A DNA stretch of 64,000 nucleotides from positions 6,222 to 70,221 of the forward strand of contig CAZGAV010000006.1 in assembly GCA_964523575.1 (NCBI GenBank), in the 5' to 3' direction. The position numbers and the translations under genes are program-made. Shown in pieces: positions 12,890 through 19,950 of this stretch (its first letter is position 1; every line of letters starts with the position of its first letter). Source of the DNA: an uncultured Ignavibacteriales bacterium. Lineage in GTDB: Bacteria > Zixibacteria > MSB-5A5 > GN15 > JAAZOE01. The notes beneath the pieces are model-generated. The model was not told the origin of the DNA, did not search any database, and saw only the letters and a list, made by a program, of their open reading frames with translations.

Positions 12890-13756
12890 TCACTCGAAAA
12901 CCCACCGATCCAATTGTTGGACGGGGACAATTATCTCCCGGGCAAGGGGTATTTGTTCCGGAGGCTGGTCGGGTATGATTCGTCCCGGCCGGAGATGCAT
13001 GAAAATGATCCACTCCGGTTTAAGGGTTTCACGGGCCATTTTCTGGCGGCGGGACAATTCATTCCATTTGCCCCACCATTGGAGAAAGGCAATATCGATC
13101 GCCTGTCGGTCGAGGCCGAAACGGTGGGCGGCGGCGGTATCATATTGCGGAGAATCGCCGCTGTGATAGAGATTCCATCCGCCGATATTTATCAAATATT
13201 CAAGATGCTGGACATCGGCAAAACGGTCGTACGTCTGATCAGTCAGAGTATCGGTTCTCATCGAAACATTGTGATGGGTAGGCAGGACTATTATATCAAT
13301 GCCAGAAATATCAAGATTGACCGCCGTATCTCCCGGGGCCGGGACAATCCGGAGGCGAGCCTTGATTTCGGAATAACCCTCAATCGTATCCATTTGGGCC
13401 GCCGCCTGCGGCGTGCAAATCATTACGCCATTCCGGTTATGCCGCAGATGCGCGACGGCGATCTCGGGGCTGAAATGGTCAACATGAGCATGGGTGAGCG
13501 CGATTATGTCTATTTTATCGAACGGCGGTTGGGCGGCCGACATCAGTTCAACGAAACTGTCAGAGGGGACCTGACACCAGTCAGCATCAAAACCCCCGAA
13601 GAGGGCATCAATCAAGATCTTCTTCCCGCCGCTTTCAATCAAAAAGCCCTCATTGCCCACATAGGTAACGGTCAAAGGCGGCCGCTGTGGTTGCTCGGCT
13701 CCGATAGACAAGGCTAGAACCAACACAAAGATTGCGGTGCGCGTCATAATTTTCAT
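12890..13756 (-). CDS. Secreted MBL-fold metallo-hydrolase
   Basis: Has the HxHxDH motif THAHVDHF and an N-terminal signal peptide MKIMTRTAIFVLVLALSIGA. Confidence 0.75.
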   Translation of the reverse strand: MKIMTRTAIFVLVLALSIGAEQPQRPPLTVTYVGNEGFLIESGGKKILIDALFGGFDADWCQVPSDSFVELMSAAQPPFDKIDIIALTHAHVDHFSPEIAVAHLRHNRNGVMICTPQAAAQMDTIEGYSEIKARLRIVPAPGDTAVNLDISGIDIIVLPTHHNVSMRTDTLTDQTYDRFADVQHLEYLINIGGWNLYHSGDSPQYDTAAAHRFGLDRQAIDIAFLQWWGKWNELSRRQKMARETLKPEWIIFMHLRPGRIIPDQPPEQIPLAREIIVPVQQLDRWVFE

Positions 13757-13823
13757 CCATGCCTCCCTTGATGCGGATAATACATAGACGATGAATGAGG
13801 AGTCAATGATTATTGACGCGGAC

Positions 13824-13860
13824 TAAAATAATAAAGGCCGGGTATACACAACCCGGCCTT
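13824..13860 (-). terminator. Intrinsic terminator closing the sigma54-driven two-gene unit
   Basis: A 10-bp stem AAGGCCGGGT (13834-13843) / ACCCGGCCTT (13851-13860) is followed by UAUUAUUUU on the minus strand. Confidence 0.65.
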
Positions 13861-13929
13861 CTATCGCACAGGGGGGCTAGGAGGGGTTTTGCAATATTCT
13901 CGTGCGGTCTCTCCCCATCCCTCCCGCGG

Positions 13930-14268
13930 CTACCCCTTTGAAAAAGCCACGCTTCGAAGCACCAGTCCCAGCGTAAAGAGCGATACCGTCGCCGGAAGCA
14001 TATAGACAAAACTGTAGGGCAGGAAGAAGGTCGCAATAAAGGCTGAGAGCAATGATGGCAGGGCTACGAAGAAAATTAATTGAAACGAAAATTTGACCAG
14101 CTTGTAGGCCAGGAGTAGGACGATGGCGGCCGCCAGCAAATAGGCCGCATAGAGCCCGGTCTGTCCGAAATGGTCGAGGATAAACTGCCGGATCGGGTCC
14201 AGCGTATGCTGTTGAGCGATAACCGTACGGGCGATCTCCCCGGTTTGGATTTCGGCCAGAAGACTCAT
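13930..14268 (-). CDS. Hypothetical small membrane protein (about 3 TM)
   Basis: 112 aa, with a polar N-terminal section of about 35 aa followed by three hydrophobic segments. It sits between a sigma54 promoter and a terminator. I recognised no family. Confidence 0.5.
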   Translation of the reverse strand: MSLLAEIQTGEIARTVIAQQHTLDPIRQFILDHFGQTGLYAAYLLAAAIVLLLAYKLVKFSFQLIFFVALPSLLSAFIATFFLPYSFVYMLPATVSLFTLGLVLRSVAFSKG

Positions 14269-14314
14269 CGAATTGCCCGTTCCGTTTTGATCTTATAGTT
14301 TTTTGCAGTCATCG

Positions 14315-14527
14315 TCAATCCACCGGCTCAATAGTCAAGCTTGATTCACCCACATGAGTCAGACCGATCATTCTCGTCGTCAGAAAATTCTTGGAGGTAA
14401 TCCATTTTTGGGAAAGCTCCATGACCTGCTCCTGATTGACCTCTTCTTCCCAGTCAAGAATGATATTGTCAAGACGCTGGTTGTTGATTACAACATCGTC
14501 CATAGTGAGAGTAAACTTGACTTTCAT
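14315..14527 (-). CDS. Hypothetical 70-aa acidic soluble protein
   Basis: It is the first ORF downstream of the sigma54 promoter, with a leader of about 42 nt. The RBS is weak (AGGCGGA) and no family was recognised. Confidence 0.4.
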   Translation of the reverse strand: MKVKFTLTMDDVVINNQRLDNIILDWEEEVNQEQVMELSQKWITSKNFLTTRMIGLTHVGESSLTIEPVD

Positions 14528-14579
14528 ACTTTATATCCGCCTGTCGTTTCAAAGTTTCACATTTCCTGTCGGGGTATTT

Positions 14580-14596
14580 TGCAAGGCGGATGCCAA
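14580..14596 (-). promoter_or_regulatory. Sigma54 (RpoN) -24/-12 promoter
   Basis: The minus strand reads CTTGGCATccgccTTGCAaaa. This is TGGCAT-N5-TTGCA with exact consensus GG/GC spacing, 53 nt upstream of the ATG at 14527. Confidence 0.6.
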
Positions 14597-14649
14597 GGCC
14601 GGACATAAATTAAAAAATCTGTAATACCTTGATTATCAATAACATAGAT

Positions 14650-15445
14650 ATGGGGCAACGCCCATACCGGGCATAAATTGCAATCTTTTAGGATTTGGCC
14701 GGAGACAAATTATAGGACGTCGCCCATTGTCTGTTGGTCGCCAGCGAGGCTTGTCATTTTGAACAGCCCTCCCCCGAATATTCGGGGAAGGGCTGTTATG
14801 CAGGCCCTCAATGGTGCGACCCGATCCCTTGCCGTTATAGAAAAGAGACTATCGATGCCGGCACCGGGGTCGGCCTTCAAGTATCATGGCCGCCGCCTTT
14901 CATCGGACTTCCCCCCTCAAAGCGGCCTGAATCCTGCGAATGTCGACTCCCTTCGATTGAGGGCCTTATGACCCCCGTAATAAACCAGCCCCCTGGTCCC
15001 TCCCGCCCATACGGGCCGTGACGGCGCACCGATGCCCTCCCCGGATACGGATATCTTCCATTTATCCGATATCCGCCGGTCTCGGTGCGCCGGCCCGTAA
15101 GAGAATATAAGCGGCCCGGTCGGGCCGCCCTCCGATACCCTTGCTGAGGTTTCGGCCGCCGTTAATCTGCGGCCATAAAAGAAGGCTCCCGGGCAGAATT
15201 CTGCGACCGCTCGATCGCGGTTCCATCCGCGCCGGAGCCGGAATGGGGCGCCGGAATTCTCTCGTTCCGAAGTGGATCCTCTCCCTGAGTTTTGCCAAAA
15301 CCATATCCTTGCCGCCGTTTTTGACCGGATGGCTGAAGGAACCATATACAAGCCGTGCCCACGTTGCATATGGTGGGGGATCTTCTGATTGATAACCGCC
15401 GGTGGGGGAAGAAAACCCTGTGAGGCCGGTTTCCTTAAGCGATTC
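14650..15445 (-). ncRNA. Candidate large (about 0.8 kb) structured non-coding RNA of unassigned family
   Basis: No credible ORF is present and the region is GC-rich relative to its AT-rich flanks. It contains many perfect local and long-range helices (listed in the findings). A TTGACA-N17-TAGCTT promoter points into it on the minus strand. One G-U wobble in the 15-bp hairpin at 14762-14797 exists only in the minus-strand transcript. The boundaries are approximate. Confidence 0.4.
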
Positions 15446-15451
15446 AATATT

Positions 15452-15480
15452 AAGCTAATAATTTCTACATCATTTGTCAA
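15452..15480 (-). promoter_or_regulatory. Sigma70-like promoter facing the ORF-free region
   Basis: On the minus strand, TTGACA (15480-15475) is followed by a 17-nt spacer and TAGCTT (15457-15452). Confidence 0.4.
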
Positions 15481-15645
15481 CTGAATTATTGAAGACTCGG
15501 CGTCTTGCTTGAAATTGGGTCGATACCGAAAATAAAGGCGTAAACCCTTGGGCCTTGATTTTCATCTTATCTTTGGAACCGGGGTTTGCCCCGCAAGGTA
15601 CAAACCATCGGAAAAATTGAAAAACTTTGCCGCCGGAGGAAAATT

Positions 15646-16614
15646 ATGATGCACCATAACAAGATATACACTCTGGCAGGGGTGGCCGTCGTTCTGGCCC
15701 TGCTAATTTTAGGGCCGGCTGCAGCCAAAAAATATGATACGGGGCGGGCCTGGATCGGAGTTTATACTCAGTCTATCGACAAGGATTTGCAGGAGGCCTT
15801 CGATCTTGACACCGGTCAGGGACTGGTCATCGTCGATGTCGCCGATAATTCCCCGGCTGAGGATGCCGGATTGAAACGAAAGGATATTATTGTTGAGTTG
15901 AACGGCCAGAAGGTAGAGGATGCCGACGACCTTCTGGATATGGTCGAAGATCTCGATGTGGGCGATAAGGCCGAGATGAAAATCCTCAGGAAAGGAAAAG
16001 AACAGACTGTTGACCTGACTATCGGACAAAAGCCCAAATTCGAGTGGTTCGGATCGCGCTCCGGGTCCCATACCCCCCGGGTGATTACCCGCGATTACCA
16101 TTTGTATTCGGATTCGGAAGGGTATATCGGAGTCGGCATTCAAAACCTGACCGAACAACTGGGCGACTATTTCGGAGTCAAGGACGGCGCCGGCGTTTTG
16201 ATAACCGAAGTTTTCGAAGATTCGCCGGCGGCCAAAGCCGGTCTTAAGGCGGGCGACTTGGTCGTGGCCGTGGACGGCGAGGATATCGCTCAAGCCGATG
16301 AACTGCAGGAGATTATCGCCGATAAAAAGGAAGGCGACCAAGTTTCCGTGGAATATCTGCGCCACGGAAACAGGGAAAAAGTAACCGTCGAGGTGGCCGA
16401 GAACTCAGCCGGGATAAATCGGTATTCGATCCCCGATATTAACATTCAAATTCCCAATCTGTCGCTTATGAAAAACCTGGATCATTTCTACTTCAGCGAT
16501 GACGATAACGGATATTTCAACGCCGAGGAGTATAAGCAGCAAATGAAGGAGCTCAAGAAGGAGCTTCAGGAGATGAGCAAAGAATTGAAGGAGATTCAGA
16601 AGAAGCTTGAATAA
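15646..16614 (+). CDS. Membrane-anchored protein with two PDZ domains and a C-terminal coiled coil
   Basis: The start at 15646 follows a GGAGGA RBS. There is a signal anchor YTLAGVAVVLALLILGPAAA and two PDZ-like units (GLVIVDVADNSPAEDAGLKRKDIIVELNG and GVLITEVFEDSPAAKAGLKAGDLVVAVDG). The tail is K/E-rich (KELKKELQEMSKELKEIQKKLE). Confidence 0.8.
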   Translation: MMHHNKIYTLAGVAVVLALLILGPAAAKKYDTGRAWIGVYTQSIDKDLQEAFDLDTGQGLVIVDVADNSPAEDAGLKRKDIIVELNGQKVEDADDLLDMVEDLDVGDKAEMKILRKGKEQTVDLTIGQKPKFEWFGSRSGSHTPRVITRDYHLYSDSEGYIGVGIQNLTEQLGDYFGVKDGAGVLITEVFEDSPAAKAGLKAGDLVVAVDGEDIAQADELQEIIADKKEGDQVSVEYLRHGNREKVTVEVAENSAGINRYSIPDINIQIPNLSLMKNLDHFYFSDDDNGYFNAEEYKQQMKELKKELQEMSKELKEIQKKLE

Positions 16615-16711
16615 GTTGAGAGTCGACGGCCGCAAGAAGATTCGGTTCAAGAAAGATGGCTATCAACAGGCCGGTTATTGCAATCTCCTGTATATCGTAC
16701 CGTAACTCAAT

Positions 16712-16741
16712 CCCCGGGAACCCTCTTCCGGGGGTTTCTTT
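16712..16741 (+). terminator. Intrinsic terminator of the PDZ gene
   Basis: The stem CCCCGG (16712-16717) / CCGGGG (16728-16733) is followed by GUUUCUUU. Confidence 0.7.
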
Positions 16742-16877
16742 ATGAATAACGGGTATACAATTTAGTATAATACGATCAATTTTTAGCAGATAAATATTTC
16801 AATCCGGGGGCGGTCGTTTTATAGCTTTAACTTCTTGCCTTATATAAGATAAAATGTATCCAAAAGACCTTTTTGGC

Positions 16878-16920
16878 TTGACAGAATGCAAAAATATGGA
16901 TACCATAATAGTGGTATAAT
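16878..16920 (+). promoter_or_regulatory. Tandem sigma70-type promoters
   Basis: The first is TTGACA (16878-16883)-N17-TACCAT (16901-16906). The second is an extended -10, TGGTATAAT (16912-16920). Confidence 0.45.
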
Positions 16921-17422
16921 GTATGAGTCGTGGCTGGAGGCGCCCGGCTCATGTTTTGTGGTATGCCGTTCGTGTTTCAAACATCGAATGGCTGGGATAA
17001 TAGTTCATAGAACTGAAGCTTTTGCCTTCGGGCGGAATGTGACAGGAAATAAGCATGGGCCTTTTAATGGATTAGAAGGGGGTATGCCTGGGTAATATGT
17101 CGGCGGGATTGACGCTCCGATGATCCTGTGCGGCCTTTTTCGACGCCAACCGGATACGATTTTCGATTGATTATTTCGGTTTGCGGACGATAAACCTTAA
17201 CGAGATGTGCTGTGTCAACAGAAGGTGAAAGAGCCAACTCGTATGATCCGCAGTGTGCGGAGTATTTGATTCATATTGAAGAGTTCACCCCTGGTCGCTG
17301 GCGACTCCTTCCGGATCCCGGATCGAGTCTGATGCGACGCCTGAAGAACCTGAGATTGAATCGAATCCCCTTCATACGAGAATCGCTCAACATCACCATA
17401 CCATTCTCGAAGGAGGTTTATC

Positions 17423-17662
17423 ATGAAGAGGTTAATCGCGTCGGCACTGGTGGTTTTTGTATGCGTCGTTTTATTCGGTGTGATCCTTTATGCCGATCCC
17501 GGAACCAATCCGGAAACGACGGACAGCACATATATTCCACCGCCCCCCGGATACGAAGGTGTTTGGCCGCCGCCGGACGGCCTGATAATAACGACGAGTA
17601 TTGACAGTTGCGATACTTGTCCGGCAAATACGGATCCACCATGGGATATCCCTGGCCAATAA
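17423..17662 (+). CDS. Small (79 aa) signal-anchored proline-rich protein
   Basis: A strong AGGAGG RBS (17411-17416) lies 6 nt upstream of the ATG. The N-terminus has the hydrophobic segment LIASALVVFVCVVLFGVILYA. The mature part is P/T/D-rich with a CxxC (SCDTCP). Confidence 0.55.
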   Translation: MKRLIASALVVFVCVVLFGVILYADPGTNPETTDSTYIPPPPGYEGVWPPPDGLIITTSIDSCDTCPANTDPPWDIPGQ

Positions 17663-17808: not shown

Positions 17809-19950
17809 ATGACATACCGGACTATCACAGACGTCCTCAATCTGGCCGAAGAGCTTTTTGAGGCCAAAAAGTTCAAGGAAGTTCTCGATGCCCTGGGAGG
17901 AATCGATTACAATTCGATTTCTCCCGAGGATAGGGCCCGGTGTAACTTGTTTAACGTCGAGGCCAATTACTATCTCGGGAATTTCGATATCGAGCCGCAA
18001 CTCAATGAGGCCCTTGATTACTATAAACGCAGTCGAGACGACGAAAAATTCGCTCGTTCAAAGTATCTTAAAGGTCATCTGTTGATGATGAAGGGCGAAT
18101 ATATCGACGCCCGGGAAGAGCTTATTGAGGCCTTCACGATGTACCGGCGTCATGACCGGCTTTGGGATATGGCTCTCGTTTCAAATCTGCTTGGTCGATT
18201 GTGTTTTCAACTCGGTGATCTGGAAGCTGCCGAGAATCATATCAAAAAGTCCATCGATATTTACCGTCAGCTTGGGGATACGGTCAGCAGGATCCAAGTA
18301 TCGGGTAACCTGTCCACAATTTATTGCTTCGGTGGATACCTGACACGGTCTATCGAAATGTTATCATCTATCGCCACCCAGGCCTGCAACCGAACCCCCA
18401 GGAGTATCGCCTCATTCTTGATTCAATTCTCTATTCCCAATTATCTCAAGGGCGATTACAAGTCGGCCCATGAATTGATGGACAAATCCCTGAAATACAT
18501 CGAGGATACTGCCGACCTTCAGGCGATTTATCTGGAGGCTCGCGGTGAGGCGTACTATTTCGAAGGACGCTATGAGGAAGCCAGGGAGGTACTGGTCAAA
18601 GCGCATGAGATGACAGAGAAGGCCGCTCCCAAGGGGACCCTCATGGCCAATATCAAAGAACTGCTCAGCCGAAGCCTGATCGATTTGAATGAATTGGATG
18701 CCGCGGGCAGGCTCAATGAAGAGGTCTACGAAATCGCCGAAAAAATCAACGAGCGGCCGATGATAGCCGCATATTATCGCAATCGGGGACGTCTGGAAGC
18801 TCTCAAGGGCAACGCGGCCGACAGCCGCGAATGGTTCCGAAAATCTATCATCCTGTACAGCGCCATTAAAACCAGATTCGAACTGAGTTTGGCCCGTTAT
18901 CAGGCGGCAATGTCGGGCGTATTTCCCCCCGGTGAACGCCATGCCTTTCTATATTTGGCGCGCGAGTACTTCGAATCCGAAGACGTCGGATATATGGTCA
19001 AGAAGATAAATACCGAAATCAACAATTTTCAGATCATGCCGAGGGCAATCCCTGATTGGACCCGGGCCAAATTACCTCGCATCGTCACTGTCAACGATGA
19101 GATGAAACGCATCCTGTCGATGGCCGAACATATAGCTCCCTCGGATATGTCGGTTTTGTTGACCGGAGCCACCGGCACCGGCAAAGATATGCTGGCTCGG
19201 TATATCCACCACCATTCCGGTCGAACCGGTCGTTTTGTGTCGATTAATGCCGCGGCCATTCCCGATAGCATGGTCGAATCGGAGCTGTTCGGCCACCGCC
19301 GCGGCGCCTTCACCAATGCCGACCGGGACAAGGTCGGACTGATCGAAGTCGCGCATGACGGGACTCTATACCTGAATGAAATTGCCGACGCCTCCAAGGA
19401 ACTACAAGCCAAACTTCTCGATGTCTTGGAAAACCACACAATCCGGCGTTTGGGAGAAACCAAGGAGCGAGAGGTCGCTTTCCGCCTGATAGCGGCCACC
19501 AATCATGATCTGACCCGGTTGATCGACGACGGCAAATTCCGAGTCGATCTCTATCATAGGATCAGTGAGGTTCCTTTTTCCCTCCCGCCTCTGGCTGAGC
19601 GCAAGGATGATATACCGGTCCTGCTGGCTCATTTTCTGACGCTGGCTGGCGTGGAAGTGGATACCGAAAATGCAGATTTCCAAAGTCTGGCCCGGCTTTT
19701 ATCGGAGCGAGAATGGCCCGGTAATGTACGTCAAATGGAGGCCGAATCCAAACGGCTGGCCCTTCTTTCGCGCGGCGACGCGGCCGCCATGCAACAGTTT
19801 ATCTCAAGTCATAGGTTCTCTGAACGCGACCAACTTTATGACCTCCTGCGGCAGACCAACTGGAATCGACGAGAAGTAGCGCGAAAATTGGGCGTGAGTG
19901 ATACGACGATACGCCGCAAAATACGAAAATTCAAGCTTGACGACGAATGA
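17809..19950 (+). CDS. Sigma54-dependent transcriptional activator (bEBP) with an N-terminal TPR sensor region
   Basis: Has Walker A LLTGATGTGKD, ESELFGH, the sigma54-contact loop GAFTNA (a variant of GAFTGA), Walker B DGTLYLNEI, and a C-terminal Fis-type HTH (NRREVARKLGVSDTTIRRKIRKF). The first about 400 aa have TPR-like repeats. Confidence 0.9.
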   Translation: MTYRTITDVLNLAEELFEAKKFKEVLDALGGIDYNSISPEDRARCNLFNVEANYYLGNFDIEPQLNEALDYYKRSRDDEKFARSKYLKGHLLMMKGEYIDAREELIEAFTMYRRHDRLWDMALVSNLLGRLCFQLGDLEAAENHIKKSIDIYRQLGDTVSRIQVSGNLSTIYCFGGYLTRSIEMLSSIATQACNRTPRSIASFLIQFSIPNYLKGDYKSAHELMDKSLKYIEDTADLQAIYLEARGEAYYFEGRYEEAREVLVKAHEMTEKAAPKGTLMANIKELLSRSLIDLNELDAAGRLNEEVYEIAEKINERPMIAAYYRNRGRLEALKGNAADSREWFRKSIILYSAIKTRFELSLARYQAAMSGVFPPGERHAFLYLAREYFESEDVGYMVKKINTEINNFQIMPRAIPDWTRAKLPRIVTVNDEMKRILSMAEHIAPSDMSVLLTGATGTGKDMLARYIHHHSGRTGRFVSINAAAIPDSMVESELFGHRRGAFTNADRDKVGLIEVAHDGTLYLNEIADASKELQAKLLDVLENHTIRRLGETKEREVAFRLIAATNHDLTRLIDDGKFRVDLYHRISEVPFSLPPLAERKDDIPVLLAHFLTLAGVEVDTENADFQSLARLLSEREWPGNVRQMEAESKRLALLSRGDAAAMQQFISSHRFSERDQLYDLLRQTNWNRREVARKLGVSDTTIRRKIRKFKLDDE

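Follow-up and report, generated by a model that had tools for sequence, protein, structure and literature searches.

The 64-kb stretch of DNA analyzed here, which we refer to as the window, contains a spacer of 1118 nt (14528-15645) between two divergently transcribed genes, p70 on its left and a gene encoding a protein with two PDZ domains on its right. Within this spacer, reading along the minus strand from 15445 to 14762, there is very probably the gene for an uncatalogued, highly structured non-coding RNA of ∼684 nt, which we call RNA-1. The features of the locus are listed in Table 1. The RNA-1 region stands apart in composition, as an earlier note on this DNA had remarked, with a G+C fraction of 0.57-0.63 across 14700-15400 against 0.40-0.49 in the flanks and 0.526 for the window as a whole. 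No open reading frame (ORF) inside the spacer matches a Pfam family, and there is no second copy of RNA-1 in the window. The closest named relatives of the PDZ and p70 proteins are from Zixibacteria metagenome bins, and judging by these the source organism is Zixibacteria-like.

Table 1. Features of the RNA-1 locus and its neighborhood (coordinates are those of the window).
Feature	Coordinates	Strand	Remarks
RNA-1 transcript, ∼684 nt	14762-15445	minus	ends inferred from promoter and terminator
sigma70-type promoter	15452-15480	minus	-35 TTGACA 15480-15475; 17-nt spacer; -10 TAGCTT 15457-15452
5′ domain	15449-15274	minus	most sequence-conserved part
5′ stem-loop	15394-15444	minus	P1 15444-15438 / 15400-15394, enclosing P2
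P2	15436-15428 / 15417-15410	minus	invariant loop GGCCUCAC at 15427-15420
First C-tract, CCCCCACC	15408-15401	minus	unpaired, in 5′ stem-loop
Second C-tract, CCCCCACC	15379-15372	minus	runs into hairpin P3
Hairpin P3, ACCAUAUGCAA / UUGUAUAUGGU	15374-15364 / 15351-15341	minus	almost invariant
17-mer UCAGGGAGAGGAUCCAC	15272-15288	minus	near-invariant; AGAGG part predicted accessible
Variable center	15153-15271	minus	poor alignment, no consensus helix
Motif AAACCUCAGCAAGG	15139-15152	minus	conserved, predicted accessible; core CCUCAGCAA
Short GC stem, 4-6 nt loop	15111-15128	minus	consensus 5 bp, 15126-15122 / 15117-15113
Long arm, three coaxial helices	15022-15092	minus	15092-15088 / 15026-15022; 15082-15079 / 15036-15033; 15076-15066 / 15057-15047
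3′ domain, ∼165 nt	14802-14966	minus	closed by 11-bp helix 14966-14956 / 14812-14802
3′ domain inner helices	14942-14938 / 14878-14874; 14927-14921 / 14894-14888	minus	among the best supported
Terminal hairpin	14762-14797	minus	putative intrinsic terminator; 5 of 11 pairs changed on both sides
sigma54 upstream region	14601-14761		outside RNA-1; aligns with relatives without RNA-1
sigma54 promoter of p70-p112 operon, TTGGCATCCGCCTTGCA	14580-14596	minus	near-invariant in all homologous loci
p70	14315-14527	minus	70-aa gene, left of spacer
p112	13930-14268	minus	112-aa membrane protein, after p70
PDZ gene	15646-16614	plus	two PDZ domains, right of spacer
Gap between PDZ gene and p79	16615-17422	plus	in order: PDZ terminator, conserved promoter, ∼480-nt leader
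Conserved promoter CTTGACAGA	∼16877-16910	plus	followed by leader to 17422
sigma54 enhancer-binding protein (activator)	17809-19950		TPR-containing; encoded beyond p79

RNA-1 has the promoter of its own that the earlier note had proposed on the minus strand, and this is shared by the loci compared. All 11 of them, even the distant L033, L036 and L037, have exactly TTGACA as the -35 hexamer and a spacing of 17 nt. The -10 hexamer is TATATT in seven loci, TATACT in L105, TATTAT in L036, TAAATT in L033 and TAGCTT in the window, and the pattern TTGACA-N17-TAnnnT therefore holds throughout (11/11). Transcription would begin at about 15445. At the other end of the gene the terminal hairpin is followed by a run of U residues in L103, L106, L109, L112, L119 and L037, and by a weak one in L105; the tail in the window (14755-14761) is CAAAAUG, a degenerate version with no U-tract, and to judge from these residues the hairpin is a poor terminator in the window copy.

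The case that this region is under selection rests on lineages reached through the protein clusters of the PDZ protein (55-60% identical) and of p70. Syntenic homologues of RNA-1 are found in nine further metagenomic lineages, and the entire spacer aligns with that of the window in L103/L104, L105, L106, L109 (with L114-L118), L112/L113 and L119. Searches with the whole spacer using nhmmer give E values of 1e-68 to 1e-83 for L103, L105, L106 and L109, and a profile search gives 4e-129 for L112 and 9e-38 for L119. In these full-length-aligning lineages the PDZ protein is only 51-60% identical to that of the window, and the sigma54 activator, where it can be measured (L103, L105, L109), 43-58% identical. 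That a spacer aligns over its full length while the flanking proteins have diverged to 51-60% identity is evidence of constraint, and the comparison with relatives that the earlier note had called for thus comes out in favor of a conserved element. We also note a 90.7%-identical relative, L102, which covers 13379-15066, and that L099-L101 are the same strain as the window.

Both the stability and the covariation of the predicted fold argue for a structured RNA. For the segment 14650-15445 the z-scores of the minimum free energy (MFE) are -6.1 on the minus strand and -3.8 on the plus strand, and for 14762-15445 they are -6.2 and -8.3; thirty segments of the same length from elsewhere in the window provide a background with a mean of -0.6, a standard deviation of 1.25 and a minimum of -3.1. 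An alignment of seven sequences yields 81 consensus pairs, with 94.5% of the cells paired and 29 of the 81 pairs changed on both sides, as compared to 5-10 in slid controls; the covariation score of 0.270 (0.06-0.09 when slid) was reached by none of 500 shuffles. When L112, L119 and L116 are added, the resulting 10-sequence alignment has 77 consensus pairs, 89.5% of cells paired and 39 of 77 pairs changed on both sides (slid controls 11-25), with a score of 0.313 versus 0.07-0.13, again reached in 0 of 500 shuffles. Compensatory base-pair changes fall in at least seven helices.

The large, helix-dense RNA pictured in the earlier note is therefore well supported by covariation as well as by folding energy, although not all of its parts fare equally. 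Every helix that it listed is present in the window, but three of them are missing from the consensus fold. Two, GGCCGC/GCGGCC (15154-15174) and ACCGC/GCGGT (15206-15221), lie in the poorly alignable center and are not conserved; the third is the outermost segment, ACGGGCC/GGCCCGT, of a proposed 88-nt arm, which pairs only in the window and L102 (a reading of the 10-sequence alignment by eye, not a count). A long-range helix had been placed at 14803-14812 / 14955-14964; the helix exists, but it is the 11-bp closing helix of the 3′ domain, at 14802-14812 / 14956-14966. Among the listed helices covariation is seen in the long arm (16 of 20 pairs changed on both sides), the closing helix (7 of 11), the stem at 15111-15128 (2 of 5, with 91% of cells paired) and the terminal hairpin.

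The minus strand is favored as the RNA strand on several independent grounds, in agreement with the earlier proposal. Promoter and terminator both point along it. The single non-Watson-Crick position of the 14762-14797 hairpin, from which the earlier note had argued, is indeed C-A on the plus strand and G.U on the minus strand, and the consensus structure as a whole contains 71 G.U cells on the minus strand versus 10 on the plus strand, a count that is biased by the strand used for prediction. The MFE of the minus strand is 26-44 kcal/mol lower than that of the plus strand in all five full-length homologues, and the changes in L102 at 14804 and 14966, both in the closing helix, keep their pairing only on the minus strand, as G.U. 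The changes within the 5′ stem-loop are likewise mostly A-U to G.U or C-G to U.G, and are tolerated only on this strand.

The anatomy of RNA-1 is modular. A core of ∼410 nt is made up of the 5′ stem-loop with its CCUCAC loop, two CCCCACC tracts, an invariant hairpin, an invariant GGGAGAGGAUCCAC, the variable center and the covarying long arm; the 3′ domain comes after this core, and in the window the terminator hairpin lies 4 nt beyond it. In hairpin P3, 8 of 11 pairs never vary and one shows a GU-to-UG swap, while in L119 the hairpin is broken; because its pairs are near-invariant, covariation speaks neither for nor against P3. Conservation and predicted accessibility coincide in UCAC of the P2 loop, in AGAGG and in CCUCAGCAA. 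Nine aligned homologues span the column of CCUCAGCAA, and eight of them, all but L106, retain it. The CCCCACC tracts are mostly paired in single-sequence fold predictions. The loop of the short stem carries GGA in 6 of 9 covering rows, as read by eye from the alignment, with the window not among them.

The clearest view of this modularity comes from L108, in which a clean deletion (at 1846-1880) removes the equivalent of window positions 14752-15023, corresponding to the 3′ domain and the terminator, with the core retained. A U-run directly follows the arm in L108, and a run of 10 U follows the arm in L103 (∼2960-2975). The L108 deletion and the U-runs in both loci suggest that the ∼410-nt 5′ part behaves as an autonomous core, and the long arm may double as the internal terminator of a shorter RNA of ∼410 nt.

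The left boundary of RNA-1 warrants a closer examination, as the earlier note had drawn the RNA as extending over 14650-15445. This holds for ∼14762-15445, the ∼684 nt of RNA-1, whereas 14650-14760 is part of the sigma54 upstream region; we exclude 14601-14760 from RNA-1 because this region is conserved also in relatives that have no RNA-1. In those relatives the spacer between the PDZ gene and p70 is only 345-385 nt and can be aligned to 14528-∼14850, a stretch that holds the p70 5′ untranslated region (UTR), the sigma54 promoter, two palindromes of the TATGGG..CCCATA type (14649-14666 and 14711-14727) and a hairpin. The promoter matches the sigma54 consensus, TGGCAC-N5-TTGC, and because of its minus-strand orientation it faces left, toward p70, and points away from RNA-1; the sigma54 enhancer-binding protein, whose gene is at 17809-19950, plausibly binds the two palindromes. 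We considered, and rejected, a pairing of the RNA-1 arm with the p70 ribosome-binding site, as the arm covaries freely while the p70 site stays fixed. There is a 13-nt direct repeat (12 of 13 identical) between the arm at 15068-15080, ACCGGCGGAUAUC, and the p70 ribosome-binding region at 14532-14544, ACAGGCGGAUAUA; it is seen only in the window and L102, and we judge it to be coincidental.

A first set of relatives, obtained by a scan of GTDB with the PDZ protein and a scan of metagenomes with p70, gave quite another picture, in that only 14528-∼14850 (at most to 14941) could be aligned and the remainder seemed unconserved. This impression was wrong because these relatives are too distant, with PDZ proteins only 39-49% identical. 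Spacers of 1.0-1.1 kb are present in three lineages, the window, L033 (the same as L001) and L037, with extra sequences that are mutually unalignable; the inserts in L033 and L037 are not GC-rich, fold no better than shuffled sequence, and have no match to the RNA-1 sequence profile. At the corresponding site, L033 (3090-3860), L037 (829-1470) and L036 (66-600; all plus) share the TTGACA-N17 promoter with the window and likewise have a terminal hairpin, followed in L037 by UUUUUUGUGUUUU. A covariance model of the 5′ domain, R1, finds the 5′ stem-loop weakly in L036 (97-179, E 1e-5 to 1.5e-4) and has a weak match in L037 (860-1037, E 0.003-0.05) that starts just after the predicted -10; it has no match in the L033 spacer. 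Of the 17-mer, the GGAUCCAC part is recognizable in L036 and the AUCC end in L037. L036 and L037 thus retain only the 5′ stem-loop with its GCCUCAC loop, with ∼600 nt between the ends that cannot be aligned to RNA-1; in L033, apart from the promoter and terminal hairpin, no homology to RNA-1 can be detected. In these distant loci the body of the RNA has presumably either diverged very rapidly or been replaced.

The estimates that we attach to the possible functions of RNA-1 are conditional on the call that an RNA gene is present, which we regard as very probable. The likeliest reading, to which we give about an even chance, is that RNA-1 acts on its own, either in trans or as the scaffold of a ribonucleoprotein. 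Transcription from ∼15445 that stops at the terminal hairpin would yield a discrete, abundant and stable RNA. The exposed and conserved motifs of this RNA, namely the CCUCAC loop, CCUCAGCAA and AGAGG, would mediate its action, perhaps by base pairing with G-rich sequences of the Shine-Dalgarno type or by binding a protein.

The principal alternative, which we consider unlikely but well worth weighing, is that RNA-1 is a very long riboswitch-like attenuator leader of p70-p112 with the 3′ domain as its sensor, such that transcripts from the sigma70-type promoter either stop at 14797-14762 or read through the sigma54 upstream region into p70. The anatomy of the 3′ end would suit such a leader: the 3′ domain is multi-helical, has a closing helix resembling a riboswitch P1, and in the window ends just 4 nt short of the terminator hairpin; and the 3′ strand of the closing helix, UGAGGG, can pair with CCCUCA or with CCCUU of the 5′ strand of the terminator over 4-6 bp in most homologues. 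However, this pairing is short, follows from the G- and C-rich composition, and is imperfect in L109, L112 and L119. All copies of RNA-1 found lie at a constant distance upstream of p70 and in its orientation, the window terminator has no U-tract, and the neighboring operon likewise carries a long conserved leader, in which a helix would sequester the ribosome-binding site, all of which fit with attenuation; yet ∼235 nt separate the terminator from the start of p70, and these hold a complete and conserved sigma54 promoter and the two palindromes, a region that also serves relatives without RNA-1. Moreover, conservation peaks in the 5′ domain, far from the supposed expression platform, and neither L108, which keeps the core without the 3′ domain and terminator, nor L103, with its 10 U after the arm, is easily accommodated. 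To our knowledge, ∼680 nt is also far beyond the length of any known riboswitch leader.

Several observations nonetheless weigh against RNA-1 being a free-standing RNA gene. Its strand and ends are inferred from sequence. The -10 hexamer of the window (TAGCTT) and its terminator tail (CAAAAUG) are the weakest of the family, and RNA-1 in this particular genome may be expressed at a lower level, and more of its transcripts may run on into the sigma54 upstream region. Owing to its strong conservation, the 5′ domain shows little two-sided covariation, the changes being mostly one-sided G.U transitions, and the covariation alignment covers only ∼9 independent lineages. Because the search covered only sites next to p70 or PDZ genes, the apparent restriction of RNA-1 to this locus is partly a search artefact, and the finding of every copy co-oriented with and directly upstream of p70-p112 fits a role in cis equally well. 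Lastly, between RNA-1 and the leader of p79 there is no complementarity of at least 7 nt that is common to at least four of five genomes.

Explanations that dispense with the RNA altogether fare much less well. We think it very improbable that the region holds a gene in decay or one for a small, basic and rapidly evolving protein, represented by the 187-aa minus-strand ORF at 14917-15480. The attraction of this idea is that stretches of 128-176 codons without stops are present on the RNA strand in five of five full-length homologues, and that in L103, L106 and L109 the site was annotated by gene callers with ORFs of 93-131 aa. But a long open frame is expected from a strand that is G-rich and poor in A and T, the called ORFs vary in length (131, 96 and 93 aa, respectively), and the 'start' of the window ORF is the TTG of the -35 box. 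Mismatches between homologues are spread evenly over codon positions (p 0.5-0.9), while in the control gene p70 the same test gives p <1e-3 in 10 of 10 pairs and <1e-6 in most; of the 59 gap runs, just 11 have a length divisible by three, so that insertions and deletions break the frame; and all six frames score alike between homologues (28-93 bits). A concatenated six-frame translation searched against 5.8 billion proteins gave nothing at E<=1, and a phmmer search of 1.84 billion cluster representatives with the 187-aa ORF returned only two eukaryotic tandem-repeat proteins, which are spurious. Together with the absence of any Pfam match, these Pfam, codon-periodicity, frame and protein-homologue tests uphold the earlier view that the spacer has no credible ORF, and the six-frame search and frame tests show no sign of the decayed gene whose presence that note had wanted checked. 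The public gene calls inside the RNA gene, all on its strand, are L103 2864-3259, L106 2853-3143 and L109 973-1254; these ORFs of 93-131 aa at the RNA-1 site in public assemblies are probably spurious, which is of some consequence for annotation.

We assign a similarly small probability to the possibility that the region is non-functional filler, the remnant of a mobile element or a promoter feature acting at the level of DNA, with the helices a by-product of GC-rich, palindromic DNA. While relatives with a 345-385-nt spacer do manage without RNA-1, and L033 and L037 hold ∼650 nt of unalignable sequence at the same place, filler would not be expected to be conserved over its full length when the short p70-p112 spacer is already 33% different in a 91%-identical relative, nor to accumulate compensatory changes that preserve pairing, nor to keep its promoter and terminator, and the G.U asymmetry indicates RNA rather than DNA. 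As to mobility, no features of a mobile element, a miniature inverted-repeat transposable element or an intron were found: RNA-1 is single copy and always at the orthologous site, with no transposase, reverse transcriptase or other protein homologue and no terminal repeats or target duplications seen, the inverted repeats being RNA-1's own helices; searches of the window, of other loci and of viral-contig, phage and plasmid collections turned up no further copies. Finally, a function on the plus strand, for example as a long structured 5′ UTR of the PDZ gene, hardly merits credence, for although Watson-Crick covariation is strand-symmetric and plus-strand folds, too, are much more stable than those of shuffled sequence (z -3.8 and -8.3), there is no sign of a plus-strand promoter upstream of the region, the sigma54 promoter at the left edge faces the other way, the conserved promoter and the U-runs after the hairpin belong to the minus strand, the 71 minus-strand G.U cells would be C.A mismatches, and the plus-strand MFE is the weaker in five of five homologues.

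The genes to the left of the spacer form a conserved unit. The p70 protein is 67-100% identical among 45 aligned cluster representatives and is widespread in metagenomes, its gene always being followed by p112 downstream and preceded by the near-invariant sigma54 promoter and 5′ UTR. Neither p70 nor p112 belongs to a Pfam family or to an NCBIfam family above cut-off. The AlphaFold model of p70 is confident (pLDDT, the predicted local distance difference test score, is 85) and consists of two β-hairpins and two helices, but it has no fold match in the PDB and gives no clue to function. Further to the left, L102 and the window have no differences over 378 nt (13379-13756) of a gene with a metallo-beta-lactamase fold, whereas they differ by 9% in p112 and by 17-33% in the spacers, a mosaic of identities that points to recent recombination or a chimeric assembly. 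To the right of RNA-1, the sequence ahead of the PDZ start (15560-15600, plus) includes CATCTTAT and then TGGAACCG, the latter a block conserved in all close relatives; in the window this block resembles a sigma54 -24/-12 element, with a spacing that is one base too long and a -12 part that is not conserved.

A second conserved leader lies beyond the PDZ gene. The 808-nt gap between this gene and that for the small membrane protein p79 is conserved at the nucleotide level in six relatives (nhmmer E 1e-35 to 2e-57), among them L107 and L110, both of which are without RNA-1; tblastx scores are equal in all frames. Its invariant GAUAAACCUUAACGAGA (17188-17205) can pair with the invariant ribosome-binding site and start of p79, AUUCUCGAAGGAGGUUUAUCAUG (17403-17425). 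Only 11 of 68 predicted pairs show a compensatory change, and the segment ∼16880-17425 has no Rfam match. It looks like a candidate riboswitch-like cis-regulatory leader of the operon of p79 and the sigma54 activator.

We class RNA-1 as a new family that matches no catalogued RNA and is in kind like the large 'ornate' bacterial RNAs. At gathering score there are no matches to Rfam 15 in the whole window, nor in seven related loci (L103, L105, L106, L108 and L109, and the analogous L033 and L037), and in E-value mode the best score across 14400-15750 is 17.9 bits, against cut-offs of 44-93, with E values of 1.8-10 that represent noise. The families tested without a match include OLE, GOLLD, ROOL, HEARO, raiA, RNase P, tmRNA, SRP RNA and 6S RNA, as well as group I and II introns and the riboswitch classes; ARAGORN finds no tRNA or tmRNA genes in the window; and a literature search found no non-coding RNA described for Zixibacteria. 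The earlier suggestion of an RNA of no known family therefore stands. Few bacterial non-coding RNAs exceed ∼500 nt and have extensive conserved structure. This one comes from an uncultivated phylum, and its homologues are already enough to define a promoter and a terminator, to draw a map of the domains and to identify more than 35 covarying pairs. The large RNAs studied so far (OLE, GOLLD, ROOL) have proved to have unusual biology and architecture (PMC12286853). We would tentatively extend the likeness to a more specific picture, in which RNA-1 is the founder of a new class of large, modular 'ornate' RNAs confined to Zixibacteria-like bacteria. Its structure would then have a role beyond pairing with targets: RNA-1 could serve as a sensing device for a ligand or protein, as a ribonucleoprotein or oligomeric scaffold, or as a catalyst, and it could be wired together with the leader at 16880-17425 into a sigma54 module comprising the PDZ protein, the small membrane protein, the TPR-containing enhancer-binding protein, p70 and p112.

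Three kinds of known RNA offer comparisons. With riboswitch and attenuator leaders RNA-1 shares a multi-helix domain with a P1-like closing helix ahead of a terminator, the possibility of a competing pairing and a co-oriented operon; it differs in that the start of p70 is 235 nt further on and behind a sigma54 promoter of its own, in being several times longer, in having a core that survives without the 3′ domain (L108), and in matching no aptamer class. A second comparison is with trans-acting small RNAs that have C-rich seeds, such as RsaE/RoxS of the Firmicutes. RNA-1 resembles this type in its sigma70-type promoter, putative intrinsic terminator and lack of an ORF, in having conserved C-rich tracts and CCUC-containing loops able to pair with G-rich ribosome-binding sites, and in being transcribed divergently from a regulator-containing operon. 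Unlike these small RNAs it is six to seven times longer and consists mostly of covarying structural helices, and its CCCCACC tracts are mostly paired, leaving only UCAC, AGAGG and CCUCAGCAA as conserved accessible segments.

The closest resemblance in kind is to OLE, GOLLD, ROOL and raiA, with which RNA-1 has in common a length of several hundred nucleotides, numerous covarying helices that fall into separable domains, invariant sequence islands between the helices, and the status of a stand-alone gene with no coding capacity and a narrow phylogenetic range. OLE is found in Firmicutes beside the genes of OLE-associated membrane proteins, and GOLLD and ROOL occur in phage or tRNA contexts. RNA-1 falls outside these families because their defining models do not match it and their typical contexts are missing; its neighbors are the PDZ protein, p70, p112 and the sigma54 activator, with no genes for OLE-associated proteins. 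For GOLLD, ROOL and OLE an oligomeric assembly has been seen by cryo-electron microscopy (PMC12286853). Unlike any of these RNAs, RNA-1 is found in Zixibacteria-like bins and always at the same place, with a PDZ-protein gene on one side and a sigma54-dependent operon on the other, and this fixed site in a conserved sigma54 regulatory locus, together with a second long leader close by, provides a concrete place to look for its function.

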